Assembly: GCA_964603505.1 (NCBI GenBank)
Contig: CAZRVT010000002.1
Location: forward strand, 10,312-74,311
Reading direction: 5' to 3'
Source of the DNA: an uncultured Holophagales bacterium
GTDB lineage: Bacteria > Acidobacteriota > Thermoanaerobaculia > UBA2201
DNA length: 64,000 bases
The notes under the pieces are model-generated. The model saw only the letters and a list, made by a program, of their open reading frames with translations. It was not told the DNA's origin and searched no databases. Position 1 is the first letter of the stretch; each line of letters starts with the position of its first letter. Of the stretch, positions 1,601-51,293 are shown piece by piece. Made by a program: the position numbers and the translations under genes.

Positions 1601-2848
1601 ATGGGCCAGACCTTCGTCCAAAAAGTGCTGGCGAGATACGCCGGCAAGAAAAGCGTGGAAGTGGGGGAGATCGTCACCGTCGCCCCCGACCACGTCCTCT
1701 CCCACGACAACTCCGCCGCCATCGCCAAGACCTTCGCCAAGATCGGCAAGCCGCAGGTGAAGGACCCCGCCCAGCCGGTGATCGTCCTCGACCACTGCGT
1801 CCCGGCGGCCGACAGCAAGTACGCCACCAACCACAAGGAGATCCGCGCGTTCGTCGCCGCGCAGGGGATCCGGCACTTCTTCGACATCAACTCCGGTGTC
1901 TGCCACCAGGTGTTCATGGAGCAGGGGTTCGCCGCCCCGGGGCGCCTCCTCCTGGGCTCCGACTCCCACACCACCACCTACGGGGCCGTGGGGGCCTTCG
2001 CCGCCGGCATCGGGCGGAGCGAGGCCGCCGCCCTCTGGGCCACCGGCCAGATGTGGCTGATGGTCCCGGAGACGATGCGGCTGGTGCTCAAGGGTAAACT
2101 GCCGGCCGACTGCTCCGCCAAGGATGTGGTCCTGTTCATCCTCGGCAAGATCGGAGCCGACGGCGCCCTCTACAAATCGGTCGAGTTCGCCGGACCGGTG
2201 GTGGAGGCGATGGAGGTGGACGACCGCATGGTCCTGACGAACATGGCCGCCGAGATGGGGGCCAAGAACGGCTATGTCCTTCCGGACGAGAAAACGAGGG
2301 CCTGGCTGAAGGGGCGGGTGCGCGGCCGGTACCAGGAAGTCCTTTCCGACCCCGACGCCGCCTATGCCGAAACGCTGGAATGGGACCTTTCCGATCTCCG
2401 GCCGCAGATCGCCTGCCCCCACTTCGTGGACAACGTCAAGGACGCCGCCGAGCTGCGCGGGACGCCGGTCCAGCAGGTGGTGGTGGGGACCTGCACCAAC
2501 GGCCGCCTGCGCGACCTTCACGAGGCCGCCGCGGTGCTGAAGGGGCGGAAAGTGGCCCGCGGCACGCGCCTGCTTGTTTTCCCGGCCTCCATGGCCATCA
2601 CCAAGCAGGCCCTGGCCGACGGCACGCTGGGGACGCTCCTCGATGCCGGCGCCGTCGTGATGAACCCCAACTGCGGGCCGTGCCTGGGGGCTCACGAGGG
2701 GGCGCTGGCGCCGGGGGAGACCTGCGTCTCCACCTCCAACCGCAATTTCAAGGGGCGGATGGGGTGCAACGAGAGCGCCATTTACCTGGCCAGCCCGCGG
2801 ACGGCCGCCATCACGGCGCTGAAAGGAGTCCTCGATGACACGCTATAA
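1601..2848 (+). CDS. leuC: 3-isopropylmalate dehydratase / homoaconitase large subunit (short archaeal-type LeuC/HACN aconitase-family)
   Basis: Aconitase-family motifs ([39 protein letters not shown]); ~415 aa small-type LeuC; followed by an overlapping LeuD. Confidence 0.85.
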
Positions 2849-3320
2849 GGGGCGCGTCTTCAAATACGGCGACAACGTCAACACCGACGTCATCTTCCCC
2901 GGCAAGTACACCTACACGGTGACCGACCGCAGGGAGATGGCCAAGCACGCCCTAGAGGACCTGGACCCCGAGTTCATCCAGACGGTGAAGCCCGGGGACA
3001 TCATCGTCGCGGGGAAGAATTTCGGCTGCGGCTCCTCCCGCGAGCAGGCCGTCACTTGCGTCAAGGAGGCCGGGGTGGCGGTGGTGATCGCCGTTTCGTT
3101 CGCCCGCATCTACTTCCGCAACTGCATCAACGAGGGGCTCCCCGCCCTGGTGTGCCCCGCGGCGGTGGAAGCGATCCAAAACGGGGAAAGCGTGGAGGTG
3201 GACCTGGCCGCGGGAACGATCGCCACCGCCAAGGGCACCTTCGCCTTCCCGCCGTTCCCGCCCGCCGTGCAGGCCATCCTGTCGGCGGGGGGATTGATTC
3301 CATACCTTAAATCGATATGA
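2835..3320 (+). CDS. leuD: 3-isopropylmalate dehydratase small subunit
   Basis: Aconitase C-terminal swivel-domain pattern ([27 protein letters not shown]); 14-nt overlap with leuC. Confidence 0.85.
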
Positions 3321-3475
3321 CAACAGCGGCTGGCTGCTGGCCGTTTACAGGGGCTCGGCATGCTGTGCCCTTGAGGGCTTCATCCGATCCGGAAAATGGT
3401 CGGATTGCCGCAGCAATCATATGGGCGGGGGAAGCGTCGCAGCGTCTTTGCGTCCCAGCATGAGAAAGGAAGCGA

Positions 3476-4825
3476 ATGACTAATCGATTTCTACGATTCA
3501 TCCTGGCTGCCCTGTTGCTGACGGGTCTGGCCTGCGGGCCCAAGGCGACCAGCACGGAGGAGTCGAAAAAGGCCCTCGACGCCGCCTACGAGAAGGCCAA
3601 CGCCGCCGTGGACGCCGCCAAGACGCCCCGGGAGAAAGCGGCCGCCTGCGCCGACTTCCTGAAGGCGCACCCCGAGTCCGAGCACACGATGGACATGCTC
3701 GAGACCCTCCTCTATTACCAGCTGGAGGAAGCCCGGGACGCCGCCGGGGCTCAACCCATCGTAGAGGGCCTCCTGGCCGGGGTCAAGGATCCGGAGCTGC
3801 TCCGCAAGATCAAGGTCGCCGGTCTCGCCATGTGGGCCAAGCTGGGGGACCAGGACATGGTGGCCGCGCGCGTGCGCGAGGTCTCCGTGGGGCCGCTCTC
3901 CTTCGACCAGCGGATGGCCATCGCCAACGCGGGAATGGAGACGGGGTTGTGGCCGATGGCCGAAGAGTATGCCGCCGGCGCGCTGATGGTGGCCACCCCC
4001 GAGGCCTTCAAGGCCGACCACCCGGGGCGGGAGTTCGCCCCCGACCGGATCGAACGCTACGTCAACCTCCGCAAGGCGGAGTGCCTGGCCGCCGCCGCGT
4101 GGGCCAGGGCCAACCTGGGCCGCTTCGAGCAGGCCTTCGCCACCTTCGAGCAAGCGCGCCCCTACACGAATTTCTCCTATCTGGGTTCCTCGGAGACCCC
4201 CTTCAACCTCTGGCTGGGCCGCACCCTGCTGATGCAGAAGGAATACGACAAGGCCTTCGAGACCCTCACCCCCGACGCCGTATTCGGCGGCACGCCGGAG
4301 GCGCTGGCGGCTTTGAAGGAGGTCTTCGTCGCCCAGACCGGCTCGGAGTTCGGGTTCGAGTCCAAGCTCGAGGAACTGCGCAACAAGCTGGCCAAAGCGG
4401 TGGTGGATTTCACCCTCCCCGACTACGCCGGCCGGGAAGTCACTTACGGCAAACAGAAGGAAGGCAAGGTGATGCTCCTGGCCTTCTGGTTCCCCACCTG
4501 AGGGGGATGCCGCGTGGAGTTGCCACGCCTCCAGCCGCTGTACGAGCAGTACAAGGACAAGGGGTTCGACATCATCGCCATCGAAGCGCGCCGCGACACC
4601 GACAACGCCAAGAAGCTGATCGCCGACCACAAGCTCACCTACACCTTCCTGGAAAACGGGGAGAACGACAAGGAAGTGGTCAGAAAGCTCTTTTCGGTCC
4701 GCGTCTTCCCCACCTCCTTCGTAATCGGGAAGGACAACAAGGTCTACTACTACCACCTGGGGTTCGAGGACGGGCAGGAAAAGGTCCTGGAAGAGGAGAT
4801 CAAGGTCCTGCTGGCGAAATCGTAG
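3476..4825 (+). CDS. Lipoprotein thiol:disulfide oxidoreductase (TlpA/ResA-like thioredoxin domain) with selenocysteine: in-frame TGA at 4499-4501 read as Sec, redox motif T-U-G-G-C; N-terminal ~300-aa helical lipoprotein domain
   Basis: Signal peptide plus lipobox LTGLAC. The sequence around the TGA, ...GKVMLLAFWFPT-TGA-GGCRVELPRLQPLYEQYKDKGF..., aligns residue for residue with the canonical TlpA FW-x-x-W-C-G-P-C-R-x-E-x-P-x-L-x-x-LY-x-x-YKDKGF. The frame continues uninterrupted (the track splits it into 3476..4501 and 4514..4825); a SECIS-like hairpin lies just downstream of the UGA. Confidence 0.7.
4512..4528 (+). promoter_or_regulatory. Candidate bacterial SECIS hairpin (GCGUGG-AGUUG-CCACGC) starting 11 nt after the UGA
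   Basis: 6-bp perfect stem with a 5-nt apical loop containing GUU, at the distance from the UGA expected for SelB-dependent recoding. Confidence 0.45.
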
Positions 4826-4853
4826 CCGGCAGTCGGTAGCCAGAAAAGCATTC

Positions 4854-4880
4854 GGGCGGGCCGTGGCGGCCCGCCCGTTT
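4854..4880 (+). terminator. Rho-independent terminator after the selenoprotein gene (GGGCGGGCC-gtggc-GGCCCGCCC then GUUUGCU)
   Basis: 9-bp GC stem directly downstream of the stop at 4825, followed by a T-rich run. Confidence 0.55.
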
Positions 4881-4895
4881 GCTATAATACAAGTA

Positions 4896-5324
4896 ATGGC
4901 CGCGCATCGCTCTATGTTGTTCTTGTTATGGCTGGTGCTTATTGCATCCAATGTTCACCCTTGCTCTTGTATCCCTACATCGGGGGGATTAGCAGGGATG
5001 ATTGAAGACGTAGATTCTGTCTTTCTTGGTCGAGTGATCTCAACAAATGTGGCGAGTGAAGAAGGATCCTCCTACATTGCGCATTTCCAAGTAATCAGAG
5101 TTTGGAAAGGTGCGAAGCAAGAAGAGAATTCTGTAATGACAGCCAATATTGGATCTTTATGTGGTGTTGATTTCATCCCTGGCCGCACATATCTTGTATT
5201 TTCAAGGAAGGGCGGGACCAACTGGTGCTTAGGGACAAAATCAGCCGATACAGCAAATAAGGAATTGAAACTGTTGGGTGATCCAATTTGGCAAAATCCC
5301 AAGGTTCGCGATTGGCATCCTTAA
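4896..5324 (+). CDS. Small secreted Cys-Ser-Cys protein resembling the TIMP / netrin-like (NTR) N-terminal domain; encoded in a low-GC islet
   Basis: Hydrophobic signal sequence, then the mature-like N-terminus CSCIP. Four Cys at relative positions ~1, 3, ~70 and ~98, consistent with TIMP N-domain disulfides C1-C70 and C3-C99. Conserved-looking blocks YIAHFQVIRVWKG and SLCGVDF...YLVF. TATAAT at 4883-4888 lies 7 nt upstream of ATG 4896; composition is clearly AT-richer than the flanks. Confidence 0.5.
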   Translation: MAAHRSMLFLLWLVLIASNVHPCSCIPTSGGLAGMIEDVDSVFLGRVISTNVASEEGSSYIAHFQVIRVWKGAKQEENSVMTANIGSLCGVDFIPGRTYLVFSRKGGTNWCLGTKSADTANKELKLLGDPIWQNPKVRDWHP

Positions 5325-26278: not shown

Positions 26279-26866
26279 GTGAACACGCTCAAGGTCTTCT
26301 TTTTGATGTTCGTCCTCACCGCCATCTTCCTGCTGGTGGGGGACTGGGTCGGCGGGCAGCGGGGGATGGTCATCGCCCTTGTATTTGGCGGCCTCTTCAA
26401 TCTGGTTAGTTATTGGTTCTCCGACCGGATCGTTCTGGCGATGTACGGCGCCCAGCAAGTGACCGAGGCCGAGGCCCCGGAGTTATATTCGATCGTCCGG
26501 GAGCTGGCGACGGCGGCGAACCTCCCCATGCCGCGGCTGGCCGTCATCCCCCAGGAGGCCCCGAACGCCTTCGCCACCGGCCGAAACCATTCGCACGCCG
26601 TGGTCGCCGTGACCGAGGGGATGATGCGGCTGGTGAACCGCGAGGAGCTGCGGGGGGTCCTGGCCCACGAGCTGGCCCATGTCCGCAACTACGACATGCT
26701 CATCGGCACCTTCGCGGCCACCTTGGCCGCCGCGATCGCCTTCCTGCCCCGGATGCTCTTCGTCTTCGGGGGCGGGGACCGGGAGGACCGGAGCCCGCTG
26801 GGGCCCCTTCCGCTTGACAGTCTTGGAGATAATGGGTATACTTTTTATGCTTATACAGGCTCGTAG
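26279..26866 (+). pseudogene. htpX: htpX-like M48 zinc metalloprotease, 3'-truncated: HEXXH (HELAH) present but the C-terminal ~90 aa, including the third zinc-ligand region, are missing; tail overlaps the tRNA-Val promoter and the tRNA 5' end
   Basis: N-terminal TM helices plus HELAHVRNYDMLIG as in HtpX, but the ORF ends at 195 aa where homologues continue (~285 aa); the last ~17 codons read through a consensus TTGACA-17-TATACT promoter and into tRNA-Val. Confidence 0.5.
26814..26842 (+). promoter_or_regulatory. Consensus sigma70-type promoter for the tRNA-Val genes (TTGACA-17 bp-TATACT)
   Basis: TTGACA 26814-26819 and TATACT 26837-26842 with a 17-bp spacer, 14 nt upstream of the mature tRNA 5' end. 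Confidence 0.55.
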
Positions 26867-26934
26867 CTCAGACTGGTTAGAGCACTACCTTGACACGGTA
26901 GGGGTCTGCGGTTCAACTCCGCACGAGCCTACCA
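26857..26934 (+). tRNA. tRNA-Val (anticodon GAC), CCA encoded
   Basis: AGGCTCGTAGCTCAGACTGGTTAGAGCACTACCTTGACACGGTAGGGGTCTGCGGTTCAACTCCGCACGAGCCTACCA cloverleaf with anticodon loop UUGACAC. Confidence 0.85.
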
Positions 26935-26957
26935 TTTCGACCGTTTACGGCTCAAAC

Positions 26958-27031
26958 AGGCGCGTAGCTCAGCTGGTTAGAGCGCTACTCTCACACAGTA
27001 GAGGTCCTCGGTTCAATTCCGAGCGCGCCTA
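26958..27031 (+). tRNA. tRNA-Val (anticodon CAC)
   Basis: AGGCGCGTAGCTCAGCTGGTTAGAGCGCTACTCTCACACAGTAGAGGTCCTCGGTTCAATTCCGAGCGCGCCTA cloverleaf with anticodon loop CUCACAC. Confidence 0.85.
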
Positions 27032-46665: not shown

Positions 46666-46744
46666 TCGCTTTTAATTATAGCACGAATATTACGTCCGAT
46701 AATATATATTATGTAAAATAAATGATAATAATTAAAACCCTTCC

Positions 46745-47614
46745 CTATTGGGAGGCTTTTAATTTCTTCTTTGTTTTCTGATCGTCTTGGGTGATCCCCT
46801 CTTTCTCGATTCGCTCAATTATAGAGTGAAGAAAAGAAATCAGCGATTCTTTGTCGATTCCTTCCTTTTTAAACTTTAATTTTATTTCGATTGGATGATC
46901 GGATGACTTCGCTTTAAATAAAGCAAAATCCGTCGCTCTAGAGTTCTCTTTGCGCATTCTTCTTATCACTTCCCTACCTTTGCCCTCCATAATTGCGTCG
47001 ATTAATTCGCGCATTTTCACTAAGTCGGGCGATTTTGCTATTTCAAGGAGCATCGATTTAGCGCTTATGTCGGCATGCCGACAGAGACTCTTAATCTCGT
47101 CGGGCATCGAAGCAATTGCAAGGATTTCGGTAATGGTAGATCTTTTTTTCCCGATCTTCTGAGAAATCATTTCATGCGTATAGCCGTATTTTTCTTGAAG
47201 AACTTGATATCCCTGAGCTTCCTCAAAGGGATCAAGTTCCTGGCGCTGGAGATTCTCTACAAGAGCGACTTCCAAACTTTGAGCGTCGTTTTCCACGGGT
47301 ATCTCGATGCACGGAAGATGACTCAATCCGCAGGCCAATGCAGCGTGATAGCGCCGTTCACCAGCAATGATTTTGCATTTGCCGTCTTCGAGGGGCTGAA
47401 CAAGAAGAGGCTCTAATACCCCATAATTGTGAATGGATTGAATCAATCCCTCCAGGTCGCCGAGATTCTTTCTTGGCTGATCGGGATTGACGACGATCGC
47501 TTCAATCGGGATCATCTTCCCAAGCGAATGATCGTCCCGGCTGAACAGGGTGTCGATAAAATGTGGCGAATGACGCATTTTTTTATCGTCTGGAAGTCCC
47601 CTTTTTTTAGACAC
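46745..47614 (-). CDS. parB: Chromosome/plasmid partitioning protein ParB (Spo0J-like)
   Basis: ParB/Srx N-domain (IVVNPDQPR..., GERRYHAA) and HTH region; 8-nt overlap with parA; markedly lower GC than the genome background. Confidence 0.8.
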   Translation of the reverse strand: MSKKRGLPDDKKMRHSPHFIDTLFSRDDHSLGKMIPIEAIVVNPDQPRKNLGDLEGLIQSIHNYGVLEPLLVQPLEDGKCKIIAGERRYHAALACGLSHLPCIEIPVENDAQSLEVALVENLQRQELDPFEEAQGYQVLQEKYGYTHEMISQKIGKKRSTITEILAIASMPDEIKSLCRHADISAKSMLLEIAKSPDLVKMRELIDAIMEGKGREVIRRMRKENSRATDFALFKAKSSDHPIEIKLKFKKEGIDKESLISFLHSIIERIEKEGITQDDQKTKKKLKASQ

Positions 47615-48362
47615 GGCTCAGCACCTCTTCTGTTAATTGATAATATTCAAGGGCTCCACGGGAGCTTGGCGCGAAGGAGAAGATGTCTTCTTTATAGGCC
47701 GGCGCCTCTTCGAGGCGGACATTTTTGTGGATGATTGTTTTGAACAACTTGGCCCCAAAGGTCTTGTTGATCTGCTGGTGAATGTCTCGGGAGAGAATCG
47801 TGCGGCCATCGTATATGGTTAATAGTACACCGAGGATTTGGAGGGAGGGGTTCACCCGTTTCTTGACTTTGTCGATGGTTTCCACGAGATCGTCGGTCCC
47901 TTCCAAAGCAAAATACGAGGATTGAATGGGCACTAAGACATGGGTGGAAGCGACCATGCAGTTAACGGTCAGAATTCCAAGGGTGGGAGGCGTATCGATT
48001 ACAATATATTGGTATTCACCCACGAGGGGCTGAAGAGCGTCTTTAAGGCAAAAATGGGCCTCCAATTCGCCCGCGAGTGCGTTCTCTAACTTGGCCAAAG
48101 CAATGGCGGAAGGTGCAATATCTAGATGCTCGGTGCGTGTATGCTGGATAATGTCACGGATCCTGCAACCTCCGGGCACAAGGGCGTCGTAGATGTTTCG
48201 ACTTCCGGGCTCTGGTCGAATAAAAGAAATCGTCGCATTGGCTTGAGGGTCCATGTCGACGAGCAGGGTGCGAATGCCCTTGCGGGCCAATGCGGCGGAG
48301 AGATTGATTGCTGTGGTCGTTTTCCCCACGCCCCCTTTTTGATTGGCGACCGAAATGATCAT
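47607..48362 (-). CDS. parA: ParA/Soj-family partitioning ATPase
   Basis: Deviant Walker A KGGVGKTTTAINL, MIISVANQKGG N-terminus, Walker B IVIDTPP. Confidence 0.85.
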   Translation of the reverse strand: MIISVANQKGGVGKTTTAINLSAALARKGIRTLLVDMDPQANATISFIRPEPGSRNIYDALVPGGCRIRDIIQHTRTEHLDIAPSAIALAKLENALAGELEAHFCLKDALQPLVGEYQYIVIDTPPTLGILTVNCMVASTHVLVPIQSSYFALEGTDDLVETIDKVKKRVNPSLQILGVLLTIYDGRTILSRDIHQQINKTFGAKLFKTIIHKNVRLEEAPAYKEDIFSFAPSSRGALEYYQLTEEVLSRV

Positions 48363-48373
48363 GGCGCGCTTCC

Positions 48374-48859
48374 CTACATTTTGTATTTTCCGAGCGATTC
48401 CGGATCCAGGTCTTCAAGCCATCGTCGAAGTTTCTCCGCTTCATCCCCTTCGGAGGAAATGTCAATGCTCTGGGCCCGCTCCAAGACCGTGGAGTCGGCG
48501 AAAATCGGGCACCCGCTTCGGACGGCCAGGGCGATGGCATCGGAAGGACGGCAGTCGATGAGGTGCTCCGACTCCCCCACCCGCAGGCGGATTACCGCGA
48601 AAAAGATGTTGTCCTCCAACGCGCTGATCAGGACATCCACGATGCGGGCGCCTAATTTATCGAGGACGGCATTGAACAGATCATGAGTCATGGGGCGGGG
48701 TGAGGTGACGCTGTCCAATTTCATGGCGATCGCGTTGGCCTCAAAAATGCCAATCCAGATCGGAAGATAGCGCGTAGCGCCCTCCTGTTGGAGGATAAGA
48801 ACGGGCATGTTGGACACCGGATCGAGAATGATCCCTTTAAGAACCATGGCGATTTGCAT
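48374..48859 (-). CDS. Bifunctional nuclease family protein (BFN/DUF151-like)
   Basis: LDPVSNMPVLILQ...YLPIWIG..EA.AIA......PRPMTHDL...CRPSDAIALA pattern of the bifunctional-nuclease domain. Confidence 0.65.
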   Translation of the reverse strand: MQIAMVLKGIILDPVSNMPVLILQQEGATRYLPIWIGIFEANAIAMKLDSVTSPRPMTHDLFNAVLDKLGARIVDVLISALEDNIFFAVIRLRVGESEHLIDCRPSDAIALAVRSGCPIFADSTVLERAQSIDISSEGDEAEKLRRWLEDLDPESLGKYKM

Positions 48860-48967
48860 AGAAATGGCCTTAGTGTAGGAGATGGCAACTCGTTTGTCAA
48901 GGGGCGGATCTTGAATTCAGGAGAGCGTTCGCGATACAATGCGTTATCAGACCTAAAGGAGAATCTT

Positions 48968-50638
48968 ATGCGCGCCATCATGTTCGGATTCCTCTTGTTT
49001 TCATGTCTCGCAGCGGCCCAATCCACGGCCAAACCAGATCCACGCGCCTTCGTGGCGGCGATGACCGAGCGGGTCGCACCCATGGCAAAGGCGATAGCCC
49101 TTAATTATTGGGAAGCGACCGCAACCGGGCGGCAAGAGCTTTATGCCCGGCAAGGGGAGCTCGAGCTGCAGTTGCGCAAGGTCTTCGCCGATCGGGCAGG
49201 CTTCGAAGCCCTCAAAGCGTTTCGGTCCGATAGCCGCATTACCGATCCCTTGCTCCGCCGCCAGATTGAGGTGCTGTATCTGTCGTTTTTAGAAAACCAG
49301 ATTGATCCGGAATTGATGGAGAAAATAGTCGCCCTTGGGAGCGCCATTGAGGGCAAATTCAACACCCACCGAGCGGAATTTGAAGGAAAGAAAGTAGCGG
49401 ACAACACGCTGGCAGAGGTTCTGAAGACCGACACCGACGAGGCCCGACGAAAAGCCGCCTGGGAGGCCTCCAAAACCGTTGGCGCCGTCGTTGTCTCCGA
49501 CCTGCTTCAGCTCGTCCGGTTGCGCAATGAGGCGGCGCGGCAGCTGGGGTTCCGCAATTATTACGAGATGCGGCTGGCCGTCAATGAGCAGGATCCTCGC
49601 GAGATTGGACGAATCTTTGAAGAGTTGGCCAAGGCCACCGAAGAGCCTTTCCTGAAGGTGAAAGACAAGATCGATGCCGCGATCGAGAAACGCTTCGGGA
49701 TCACCCGCGCCTCGATTCGTCCCCATCACTATCAGGATTTCTTTTTTCAAGAGATCCAAGAAGTTGGCGATGTGAACATGGACAGCCAGTTGAAGGACAA
49801 GGACGTTCGAAAAATTGCCGAGTCCTTTTACAATAGTATCGGGCTTTCGGTCACGGCCATGCTGGACCGTTCCGATCTGTATGAGCGGGAAGGCAAATAC
49901 CAGCATGCCTACTGCACCGACATCGACCGGCATGGCGACGTACGCACCATGTGCTCCCTGCGCAACAACCGGTATTGGCTGGAGACCCTGATGCACGAGC
50001 TCGGGCATGGCGTTTACTGCATGAATATCGATCGGACGCTTCCCTGGCTTTTGCGGGAGGAGGCGCACACCTTCACCACCGAGGCGATCGCGGAATTGTT
50101 CGGCACTTTGCCCACCAATCCCGTTTGGCTCAAAAAGGCGGCGGGCATTCCCGGCCCCGTGGTGGACACATGGGCCCCGACGCTCGAACTGGAACGGAAG
50201 ATGGGGCTGTTGATCTTCTGCCGCTGGAGTTTAGTCATGCTCCATTTTGAGCGCGCCCTTTATGAAAATCCGGACCAGGACCTCAACCGCCTCTGGTGGG
50301 ACCTCGTGGAGAAATACCAGAAGGTTCGTCGACCCGATGGACGCAATCTCCCCGACTGGGCGGCCAAGATTCATCTCGCCAGCTATCCTGTGTATTACCA
50401 TAATTACATGCTTGGCAACCTGCTGGCCTCGCAGTTGCTGCATTACATGGCCTCCAAGATCACCGGTCAGAAGGAGATCGCAATGCTGGACTTCACTGGA
50501 GACAAGCGCCTTGGGAAATACCTGCAGGAAGCGATCTTTGCCCCCGGAAAAACCCTGAGGTGGGACGAACTCATCCGCAAGGCCACCGGGGAGCCCCTGA
50601 CCGCAAAGTATTTTGCCATGGATGTGGCGATCAAGTGA
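48968..50638 (+). CDS. Secreted zinc metallopeptidase, ACE-like (M2-family peptidyl-dipeptidase type), HEXXH
   Basis: Signal peptide (MRAIMFGFLLFSCLAAAQS); gluzincin HELGHG motif with a downstream Glu; overall ~560-aa all-helical architecture and C-terminal YPxYYxxY-like pattern as in ACE homologues; family call tentative (M2 vs M3/M32). Confidence 0.55.
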   Translation: MRAIMFGFLLFSCLAAAQSTAKPDPRAFVAAMTERVAPMAKAIALNYWEATATGRQELYARQGELELQLRKVFADRAGFEALKAFRSDSRITDPLLRRQIEVLYLSFLENQIDPELMEKIVALGSAIEGKFNTHRAEFEGKKVADNTLAEVLKTDTDEARRKAAWEASKTVGAVVVSDLLQLVRLRNEAARQLGFRNYYEMRLAVNEQDPREIGRIFEELAKATEEPFLKVKDKIDAAIEKRFGITRASIRPHHYQDFFFQEIQEVGDVNMDSQLKDKDVRKIAESFYNSIGLSVTAMLDRSDLYEREGKYQHAYCTDIDRHGDVRTMCSLRNNRYWLETLMHELGHGVYCMNIDRTLPWLLREEAHTFTTEAIAELFGTLPTNPVWLKKAAGIPGPVVDTWAPTLELERKMGLLIFCRWSLVMLHFERALYENPDQDLNRLWWDLVEKYQKVRRPDGRNLPDWAAKIHLASYPVYYHNYMLGNLLASQLLHYMASKITGQKEIAMLDFTGDKRLGKYLQEAIFAPGKTLRWDELIRKATGEPLTAKYFAMDVAIK

Positions 50639-50660
50639 TAGTAAATAATTCTATAATTAT

Positions 50661-51293
50661 ATGATAGTATCAGAAATATTTTATAGTATTCAGGGGGAGG
50701 CCCAGGCCATGGGTCTCCCCTGCTGTTTTGTGCGCCTTTCGGGGTGTCCGTTCCGTTGCACCTACTGCGATACCGCCTATGCCGCCGAATCGGGCGGGGA
50801 ATCCCTTTCCATTCCAGACATCCTCGGGCGCCTCGCCGCCTACCCCTGCCGCCTGGCTGAGGTGACGGGTGGGGAACCGCTCGCCCAGCCCGATACCCCC
50901 GAGCTTCTCCGCGCCCTTCTCGACGCCGGATATTCCACTCTGCTGGAAACTTCCGGGCATCTCCCGCTCGGCCGGGTGCCGTCCGAAACCCGCATCGTCA
51001 TGGACATCAAGACCCCCGGGAGCGGCCGTCCGGGGTTCCATCCCCGGACGATTGAACGCCTGGGGACCGGCGACTCCATAAAGTTCGTGATCTGCGGCAG
51101 GGAAGACCATGACTGGGCCGTCGCCCGGGTTCGGGAACTAGACTTAGCCAGCCGGGTCCCGGTCTATTTTTCGCCTGCCTGGGGAAGGGTCCGGCCGGAT
51201 GACCTAGCGGCCTGGATCCTCCAGTCGGGCCTCCCCATCCGGCTCCATCTCCCGCTCCACAAGATCGTCTGGGGCGATCAACGGGGCGTCTGA
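50661..51293 (+). CDS. queE: 7-carboxy-7-deazaguanine synthase QueE (radical SAM, short form)
   Basis: MIVSEIFYSIQGEA N-terminus, CxxxCxxC (CPFRCTYCDT) cluster, ~210 aa. Confidence 0.8.
   Translation: MIVSEIFYSIQGEAQAMGLPCCFVRLSGCPFRCTYCDTAYAAESGGESLSIPDILGRLAAYPCRLAEVTGGEPLAQPDTPELLRALLDAGYSTLLETSGHLPLGRVPSETRIVMDIKTPGSGRPGFHPRTIERLGTGDSIKFVICGREDHDWAVARVRELDLASRVPVYFSPAWGRVRPDDLAAWILQSGLPIRLHLPLHKIVWGDQRGV

Follow-up and report, generated by a model that had tools for sequence, protein, structure and literature searches.

The window analysed here, a stretch of 64,000 nucleotides of contig CAZRVT010000002.1 from an uncultured Holophagales bacterium, carries at positions 3476–4825 (+) a reading frame which, based on our analysis, very probably represents one gene for a selenoprotein of about 449 residues, the UGA at 4499–4501 being decoded as selenocysteine (Sec, U). 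The predicted product combines a lipoprotein signal, an N-terminal helical domain resembling TPR repeats, and a C-terminal thioredoxin fold of the TlpA/ResA type with the redox motif U-G-G-C. That Sec is inserted at this codon we infer from the conserved domain spanning it, from related loci, and from a hairpin directly downstream. An earlier note, made from the letters of this DNA, had proposed a UGA-selenocysteine TlpA/ResA-type lipoprotein split in two by the open reading frame (ORF) track, and each element of that proposal testable from sequence held.

Translation of 3476–4825 (+) revealed one reading frame with a single internal stop, the TGA at 4499–4501, which corresponds to codon 342. 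Both parts appear in the ORF list, namely 3476..4501 (341 aa, starting with ATG) and 4514..4825 (103 aa, starting with GTG), and they share one frame (4514-3476 = 1038 = 346 codons), the interval between them consisting of nothing but the TGA plus four sense codons (GGG GGA TGC CGC). Coordinates and translation agree with the earlier statement that two ORFs of the same frame are parted only by this TGA. The translated context of the TGA reads ...GKVMLLAFWFPT*GGCRVELPRLQPLYEQYKDKGFDIIAIE..., with the residues KVMLLAFWFPT directly before the stop. The whole 449-codon frame ends with TAG at 4823–4825, and a Shine-Dalgarno-like AAGGA (3466–3470, +; read from the sequence by eye) is located 5 nt 5' of the ATG at 3476. 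A six-frame scan of the 64 kb for in-frame TGA codons with coding-type G+C content at the three codon positions (GC1/GC2/GC3) on both flanks resulted in two sites only, 4499–4501 and 12255. The latter was considered as a second recoding site and rejected as an ordinary stop before ribD, so that one reading frame with a flanked TGA is real and unusual within the window. Beyond the TGA at 4499–4501, GC3 stays coding-type (0.90), and amino acid conservation likewise continues.

The stop codon lies inside a conserved domain. With Cys replacing the stop, Pfam detected AhpC-TSA at aa 307–425 (E 2.9e-16), Redoxin at aa 308–439 (E 3.4e-15), and Thioredoxin_8 at aa 330–423 (E 5.1e-12), and since a single Pfam domain spans the TGA, the stop splits one fold. 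This TlpA/ResA-type thioredoxin-fold domain, with the UGA inside it, comprises aa 307–439 (4394–4792, +). A sequence search against the PDB gave 34 chains, all of which matched the C-terminal domain only, led by 2l5o (putative thioredoxin, E 3.6e-18), 3gl3 (DsbE-like, 1.2e-17), and 4nmu (ResA, 5.6e-14). Further matches were ResA of B. subtilis, StoA, TlpA (1jfu), CycY, and the pneumococcal thioredoxin-family entries 2yp6, 4hqz, and 4hqs; for the ResA/TlpA/DsbE-type entries 3gl3, 4nmu, 1st9, 1jfu, and 1kng, homology extends across the whole domain. In 2l5o (FWFPSCPGC), the U column corresponds to the first Cys of CxxC, with FWFPSCPGCVSEMP aligned against FWFPT-U-GGCRVELP. Alignment with the TlpA/ResA/DsbE-type entries of the PDB and with homologues carrying Cys at this position bears out the earlier claim that the UGA falls on the nucleophilic Cys of CxxC. 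The putative Sec342 (4499–4501, +) would thus occupy the site of the N-terminal nucleophilic Cys, and Cys345 of U-G-G-C (4508–4510, +), the predicted resolving Cys, is invariant in all 21 sequences compared (TGC or TGT), that is, the window and the 20 related loci described below. Pro412 in V-F-P-T-S-F (4709–4711, +) takes the cis-proline position of the thioredoxin fold; it is invariant (20/20), aligns with yPTS of 2l5o and 3gl3, and would, judging from the fold, adopt the cis conformation. The motif F-W-F-P-T-U-G-G-C fits the W-x-x-x-C-x-x-C at the N-terminal end of helix 1 in AhpC-TSA/Redoxin-type thioredoxin folds.

Among the NCBIfam models, the ResA subfamily was the best match with 67 bits, below its cutoff of 170, and StoA (35.8 bits, cutoff 210), TlpA (32.9, cutoff 230), and DsbE (30.4, cutoff 123) stayed below theirs as well. 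With the model NF041054 for WAxxUGC ResA-like selenoproteins, the score was 29.9 bits (cutoff 300); the window protein has WFPTUGGC as its motif. Based on these comparisons, the domain is assigned to the TlpA/ResA superfamily; since every NCBIfam model is far below its cutoff, it is not regarded as an orthologue of any characterised member, and with superfamily membership only, no specific function can be transferred.

The related loci comprise 20 from other assemblies, namely L003, L004, and 18 more that emerged when one genome of each GTDB species was scanned. These 18 are labelled as Thermoanaerobaculia/Thermoanaerobaculales, Sulfomarinibacteraceae, other Acidobacteriota, Krumholzibacteriia, Gemmatimonadota, Glassbacteria, and one 'Chondromyces' metagenome-assembled genome (MAG). 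Together, the 20 loci span at least four phylum-level labels; at the protein level, L003 is 76% identical to the window, and the others are at about 34–49% (39% for L004). At the equivalent of codon 342, all 20 have TGA. The sequence FWFPT-U-xxC-RVE[LF]P surrounds this TGA in each of the 18 scan loci; in L003 and L004, the DNA runs in frame past it into the remaining thioredoxin fold, and wherever the contig includes the stop codon, the tail past U consists of 103–113 conserved in-frame residues. The conservation of both flanks claimed before was thus seen in all 20 loci, each of them with TGA. In two of them the N-terminal domain is disturbed, by a run of N in L022 (CP070717.1, about 2773–3000) and apparently by a frame shift or truncation in L017 (3467–3883), where two overlapping ORFs match; TGA, hairpin, and C-terminal half are intact in both.

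Predicted proteins gave a complementary picture. In a collection of 5.8 billion proteins, the nine closest relatives (34–100% identity) all have 333–343 residues, and as they cover only the first 71–76% of the read-through query, they end at the window's TGA codon. This first search yielded no relative above 50 bits that covers the region beyond U, and full-length forms with Cys appeared only in a profile search. When 1.84 billion cluster representatives (50% identity) were searched with this N-terminal-domain profile, 156 proteins matched at E <= 1e-30. Among the best 150 of these, 138 end exactly before U, four are fragments ending earlier, and eight have 414–470 residues, all eight with Cys at the U position, e.g., P0349 (LNFWFPTCGPCRVELPAL) and P0379 (LWSPSCGPCRVELPRL). 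In seven Cys forms of the same two-domain architecture, U aligned with the first Cys of CxxC, one example being P0349 with FWFPTCGPCRVELP. Altogether, Cys was found aligned to U in P0328, P0349, P0350, P0367, P0371, P0379, P0384, P0393, and P0010. Sec would be the residue in about 95% of the full-length-comparable family members, with Cys as the exception, and on these alignments we regard the family as a classical case of Sec/Cys pairing in which the Sec form strongly predominates. On whether orthologues carry TGA or Cys, a question raised in the earlier note, the answer is thus TGA in 20/20 related loci and Cys in eight of the best 150 representatives. The note had also held that uniformly truncated orthologues would speak against Sec, a point that was not sustained: the predicted proteins do end there, but the DNA continues in frame, and because gene callers stop at TGA, this uniform truncation counts for Sec.

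These comparisons also bear on the idea that the TGA arose by mutation in a pseudogene or by a sequencing or assembly error of TGC or TGT. Such a change takes one base only, and metagenome assemblies do contain errors. However, 20 assemblies that are independent of each other and come from different projects and phyla have the same TGA, 138 representatives among the best 150 stop at exactly this residue, and neither coding-type GC3 (0.90) nor amino acid conservation breaks off past the stop, so that we give this explanation a practically negligible probability.

A more conventional explanation is that the TGA is a real stop separating two genes, one for a TPR lipoprotein of 341 aa and one for a 'peroxiredoxin' fragment of 103 aa starting at GTG 4514. 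This is how the JGI, NCBI, and Logan gene calls treat the locus, JGI naming the halves 'TPR repeat protein' and 'peroxiredoxin', which is the miscall as two genes that the earlier note had expected of gene finders. It would also agree with the frequency of TGA, which ends 23 of the 44 window genes and thus more than any other ordinary stop, and with the lack of visible Sec machinery nearby. Nevertheless, we consider two genes very improbable. The stop would interrupt the thioredoxin fold after strand beta1 and ahead of the active-site helix, leaving two pieces that would both be unable to fold and would both lack a complete CxxC. In L003, GCG stands where the downstream ORF of the window has its GTG, and the second ORF called there begins 72 nt later, so that the downstream ORF has no conserved start codon; nor does any Shine-Dalgarno-like sequence precede 4514. 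The 12-nt gap between the ORFs is kept in frame in the 20 related loci, and in P0008, whose contig has an identical 12-nt gap, a Redoxin fragment of 100 aa was called as the following gene. Finally, the relatives with Cys are single proteins of 432–470 aa.

Besides the protein, a structure in the mRNA argues for Sec. Folding and comparison identified the hairpin GCGUGG-AGUUG-CCACGC (4512–4528, +) as the candidate upper hairpin of a Sec insertion sequence (SECIS), with the stem 4512–4517/4523–4528 and the loop AGUUG at 4518–4522. For bacterial SECIS elements, a loop of 3–9 nt, an upper stem of 4–16 bp, a G as first or second base of the loop, with G or U usually coming next, a distance of 16–37 nt from UGA to loop, and an MFE (minimum free energy) no higher than -7.5 kcal/mol have been described (PMC13188914). 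The hairpin lies within all of these limits (loop of 5 nt beginning with A-G-U, stem of 6 bp, spacing of 16 nt, -9.0 kcal/mol for the 17-mer). Its helix is paired in 21/21 sequences (ungapped alignment, 100% of cells) with compensatory changes from U-A to C-G in L003 and from C-G to U-A in L019–L021, in addition to G-C to G-U. A possible lower stem pairs 4503–4506 with 4529–4532 (4503–4532, +); it is weak in the window and reaches up to 9 bp in the MFE structures of many relatives, and 69% of the alignment cells are paired in the register of the window.

Codon usage in this region revealed a further constraint. For the codons R346–R351, synonymous entropy is 0–0.59 bits, compared to 1.0–2.0 bits at other conserved four- and sixfold degenerate codons of the same genes. 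Within the hairpin, the codons are nearly frozen (V347 GTG 20/20, E348 GAG 21/21, L349 TTG/TTA 19/19, P350 CCA 20/21, Arg CGC 18/18), while other prolines in these genes are mostly encoded by CCC or CCG. The Cys-form loci L087 and L088 encode C-R-V-E-L-P unchanged, but with the codons GTT and CTG (L087 also CCG), and the corresponding 17-mers have folding energies of only -1.9 and -0.6 kcal/mol. Among all TlpA-like genes collected, the mean folding energy of the 45 nt past the codon is -18.7 kcal/mol in 35 genes with TGA versus -9.2 kcal/mol in 70 genes with Cys. Since Cys forms with the same peptide lose the hairpin and fold more weakly, the hairpin is tied to the UGA rather than to the encoded peptide.

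In the same collection, two more clades of TlpA-like genes with TGA were noticed, each with a SECIS of its own and mostly from Planctomycetota-type MAGs (labels such as Gemmataceae, Pirellulaceae, and Phycisphaerales). They comprise L044, L053, L055, L061, L076–L078, L081, L083 (two tandem copies), and L084 on the one hand, and L026, L027, and L030 on the other. The first clade has FWG[DFH]W-U-GPC, followed by CACGAGC-GGUC-GCUCGUG 24 nt past the UGA, and the second FWG[VY]G-U-G[AP]C, followed by GUA[GA]GGA-GGC-UCC[CU]UAC. L064 (Fimbriimonadaceae) shares the motif of the first clade with a weak fold of -5.9 kcal/mol.

Several results weigh against decoding as Sec. With regard to the hairpin, covariation comes from two lineages only, and the shuffle controls were modest, with 10/500 for cells changed on both sides and 36/500 for the covariation score, as the hairpin hardly varies. 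Moreover, the 62 nt past the UGA of the window are no more stable than shuffled sequences (z = -0.47), so that the case for the hairpin rests on sequence comparison and not on energy. With regard to the genome, ARAGORN and Rfam identified five tRNAs in the 64-kb window, none of them a tRNA-Sec, and Pfam detected no SelA, SelB, or SelD among its approximately 63 ORFs, gaps between gene calls included. The 10 kb of left flank on the same contig (JGI 3300037501, Ga0394875_0000199) contained none of selA, selB, selD, and tRNA-Sec either. The six-frame TGA scan gave no second selenoprotein gene in the window, and no gene for CcdA/DsbD, cytochrome c maturation, Sco, or Msr was found nearby as a clue to a client or donor. 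ARAGORN revealed no tRNA-Sec in the 21 loci, and scans of L085, L003, and L005–L022 for a second selenoprotein gene resulted in nothing convincing. As about 74 kb of a genome of probably several Mb were covered, the absence of Sec machinery carries little weight. The LysRS of this deep-branching lineage has only 49–54% identity to that of its closest named relatives, Aminicenantes and Terriglobales. Acidobacteria as a group include Sec users (PMC1794560, Table 2). Reassignment of the TGA codon was considered as well and is ruled out by the 23 of 44 window genes that end in TGA.

The hairpin could alternatively assist recoding of the UGA to Cys or another residue by a tRNA-Sec-like opal suppressor, such as a selC* tRNA-Cys or an allo-tRNA. 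tRNA-Sec-like tRNAs have been reported, some of them in Acidobacteria as possible nonsense suppressors, together with a SelB-compatible tRNA-Cys(UCA) in other anaerobes (Mukai et al., PMC5389517), and the sequence alone cannot separate Sec from Cys at residue 342. On the other hand, that study did not report selC* genes from Acidobacteria (PMC5389517), keeping UGA and SECIS in more than 90% of the family to insert Cys would have no obvious advantage over TGC, and UxxC, Cys-form homologues, and SECIS together form the pattern by which true selenoproteins are usually recognised (PMC1794560, PMC2398784). Thus, we regard such a suppressor as quite improbable, and Sec as the residue expected at position 342.

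At its N-terminus, the predicted protein begins with MTNRFLRFILAALLLTGLAC-G, which by eye and by pattern appears to be a signal peptide ending in the putative lipobox L-T-G-L-A-C (3476–3535, +), with the codon of Cys20 at 3533–3535. LLLTG-L-A-C20 matches a permissive PROSITE-style lipobox pattern, but not the strict L-x-x-C form. Most relatives also show an N-terminal signal with a lipobox, in a more canonical form (LATGC, LAGAC, AVGC, LSGC, and LTGC, corresponding to [LAVG][ASG]C preceded by hydrophobic residues). Cys is kept at this position in 17/19 aligned sequences, L005 apparently having a type-I signal in place of the lipoprotein signal. Based on these patterns, the product is a candidate lipoprotein. 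The window also encodes BamA, LptF/G, TonB, an OmpA-family protein, and LolCDE-like ABC components, which points to a diderm cell able to sort lipoproteins, and an outer membrane together with lipoprotein sorting in the host is therefore plausible.

The region between the signal and the thioredoxin fold (aa ~27–308; 3554–4399, +) was predicted to form an all-alpha domain of TPR-like helical repeats, in line with the large helical domain described earlier. An AlphaFold2 model of the N-terminal 341 aa has 17 helices and a mean predicted local distance difference test (pLDDT) score of 80.4. Foldseek against the PDB found generic TPR and solenoid matches only, which were marginal (best E 7e-4; template modelling (TM) scores of 0.24–0.44, query-normalised) and offered no lead to a function, and Pfam, TPR profiles included, gave no match for aa ~27–308 of the window protein. 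In Cys-form relatives, weak matches to TPR_16 or TPR_12 were detected. Based on the model, the approximately 280 residues may be called 'TPR-like' at most.

Taken together, the following mechanism can be proposed, of which the decoding of the UGA is the only step with direct sequence support. The UGA at 4499–4501 would be decoded by Sec-tRNA(Sec), delivered by a SelB-type factor bound to the hairpin at 4512–4528. Because of the signal peptide and lipobox, the product is proposed to be exported, lipidated on Cys20, and anchored to a membrane of the diderm cell, exposed to the periplasm; which of the two membranes would hold it, we can only surmise. The selenolate of Sec342, replacing the nucleophilic Cys, would attack the disulfide or oxidised thiol of a client, Cys345 would resolve the mixed selenenylsulfide, and the oxidised U-C pair would be re-reduced, presumably via a membrane shuttle of the CcdA/DsbD type. 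Action as a reductase, the electron donor, and the client are suggested by analogy to the TlpA/ResA family. The TPR-like domain would most likely dock or select the client or clients.

Among known systems, the reductases TlpA, ResA, CcmG (DsbE), and StoA share with the window protein homology over the whole domain, the place of CxxC, the P-T-S motif of the cis-proline, and a membrane-tethered, extracytoplasmic position, the last as predicted for the window protein. They differ in having Cys and a transmembrane-helix anchor, whereas the window protein is predicted to have Sec, a lipid anchor, and an additional TPR-like domain, and no genes for cytochrome c maturation or Sco/Cox are located near the window gene. 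Etrx1 and Etrx2 of Streptococcus pneumoniae are lipoproteins that reduce MsrAB2. They are likewise extracytoplasmic TlpA-like folds (PDB 4hqs, 4hqz, 2yp6; E 4e-6 to 1e-4), but as monoderm Cys enzymes without a TPR domain they have low similarity to the window protein. A thioredoxin fold combined with a client-binding TPR domain is found in the 'chaperedoxin' CnoX/YbbN, which, in contrast to the window protein, is cytoplasmic, has the opposite order (thioredoxin, then TPR), lacks Sec, and belongs to another thioredoxin subfamily.

Selenoproteins with UxxC in Prx-like or TlpA-like folds have been catalogued since 2005–2008 (Zhang & Gladyshev; PMC1794560, PMC2398784, PMC13188914), and the remark that thioredoxin-fold selenoproteins with UxxC form an established class was correct. 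Entries include 'Prx-like thiol:disulfide oxidoreductase' and 'thiol:disulfide interchange protein' (PMC1794560), 'Prx-like 1/2/3' from the Global Ocean Sampling (GOS) study, some of them fused to unknown domains (PMC2398784), and, in a review from 2026, 'thiol-disulfide isomerase-like' (cd02966, UxxC), 'Redoxin family protein' (PF08534, UxxC), and 'UGC-containing TlpA family protein' (PMC13188914). The Prx-like selenoproteins (PF00578) resemble the window protein in the AhpC-TSA/Redoxin fold, in Sec as first residue of UxxC, in the existence of Cys-form homologues, and in a SECIS within the coding region right past the UGA. They are catalogued under the redox domain only, with neither a TPR domain nor a lipoprotein signal mentioned in these catalogues, whereas the window protein is predicted to have a TPR-like domain and a lipoprotein signal, besides its own motif FWFPT-U-GGC-RVELP. 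One of the catalogued examples (WP_010940744.1, HEU0032618.1, MGB1650493.1) is possibly already a member of this family. The 'UGC-containing TlpA family' (NF041054) shares a TlpA/ResA-like fold with Sec in the active-site region, and its model of 354 positions indicates that it is also multi-domain, but its motif is U-G-C (UxC) and not U-G-G-C (UxxC). In agreement with the earlier statement that a two-domain, lipidated TlpA form is not a standard annotation, no NCBIfam model claims the protein. We found no paper joining Sec with Thermoanaerobaculia and nothing on Sec in the related phyla, and a literature search combining selenoprotein, TlpA, and lipoprotein gave irrelevant matches only. The architecture (lipoprotein signal, TPR-like domain, and TlpA domain with U-G-G-C), the size of the family, and its taxonomic range were not found described.

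Regarding the genomic surroundings, synteny is kept only within sub-clades, and no redox partner was identified among the conserved neighbours. The neighbours shared by the window and L003 encode an HD protein, a homoaconitase-like LeuCD, and EamA. In one clade, they encode an IF-2B-family protein, which we take to be MtnA-like, a phytase-like protein, and an ArfB-like protein. The gene for the latter, absent from the window, is of the ArfB/YaeJ type with an RF-1 domain (peptidyl-tRNA hydrolase, PF00472; E about 1e-19 for L006, L008, and L017) and lies directly downstream on the same strand (L006 4330–4899, L007 4565–5032, L008 2061–2651, L011 1978–2472, L012 4438–4983, L017 4237–4794, and also on the contig of P0008). 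Its position may reflect plain synteny, since upstream synteny is kept in this clade too.

In the window, a terminator-like hairpin of 11 G-C pairs (4853–4881, +) follows 28 nt past the stop codon; it can be read as an intrinsic terminator on both strands and has a short, poor T tract (TTTGCTATAA). Directly past it, an ORF of 142 aa (4896–5324, +) has a GC content of 42–47% in a window of 65% and may have been acquired recently. It begins with a signal peptide followed by C-S-C-I-P and had no match in Pfam or NCBIfam; its N-terminal CxC gives us the impression of a TIMP/NTR-type module, which is an assumption only. Further away, the stretch 46666–51277, whose GC3 signal for coding is weaker than elsewhere in the window and which a GC-based gene caller left empty, contains parB (46745–47614, -), parA (47607–48362, -), a gene for an M2/M3-like metallopeptidase (48788–50638, +), and a radical SAM fragment (50661–51293, +). 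Two genes for tRNA-Val (anticodons GAC and CAC), 24 nt apart, were found at 26857–27031 (+), upstream of infC-(rpmI)-rplT-pheS-pheT, an ordinary arrangement.

The current understanding of selenoproteins is not overturned by this gene, and a specialist would not be surprised by it. As a speculation which we hold only tentatively and rather doubt, the gene could stand as the first case of a large family, so far without annotation, of selenoproteins that are exported and anchored by a lipid, with at least 156 clusters at 50% identity, in which the TPR-like domain would give a TlpA-type reductase its dedicated client, forming a selenium-dependent periplasmic redox pathway in poorly studied phyla of soil and sediment, with the ArfB-like neighbour possibly rescuing ribosomes stalled at the UGA. 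In any case, a gene of the ribosome-rescue type beside a UGA-recoding gene in one clade is worth a look. At least 138 family representatives are filed short like the window gene, so that a Sec-aware model of the family would repair hundreds of gene calls, and it would reveal selenium use in little-documented lineages, namely Thermoanaerobaculia and relatives, Gemmatimonadota, and Krumholzibacteriia. The conserved minimal SECIS, with its stem of 6 bp and AGUUN loop 16 nt from the UGA, would offer a clean test of recognition by SelB outside model organisms. The family would add an extracytoplasmic, lipid-anchored member to the bacterial selenoproteome, and the predominance of Sec over Cys would make it a good natural system for studying the benefit of selenium in extracytoplasmic thiol-disulfide exchange.

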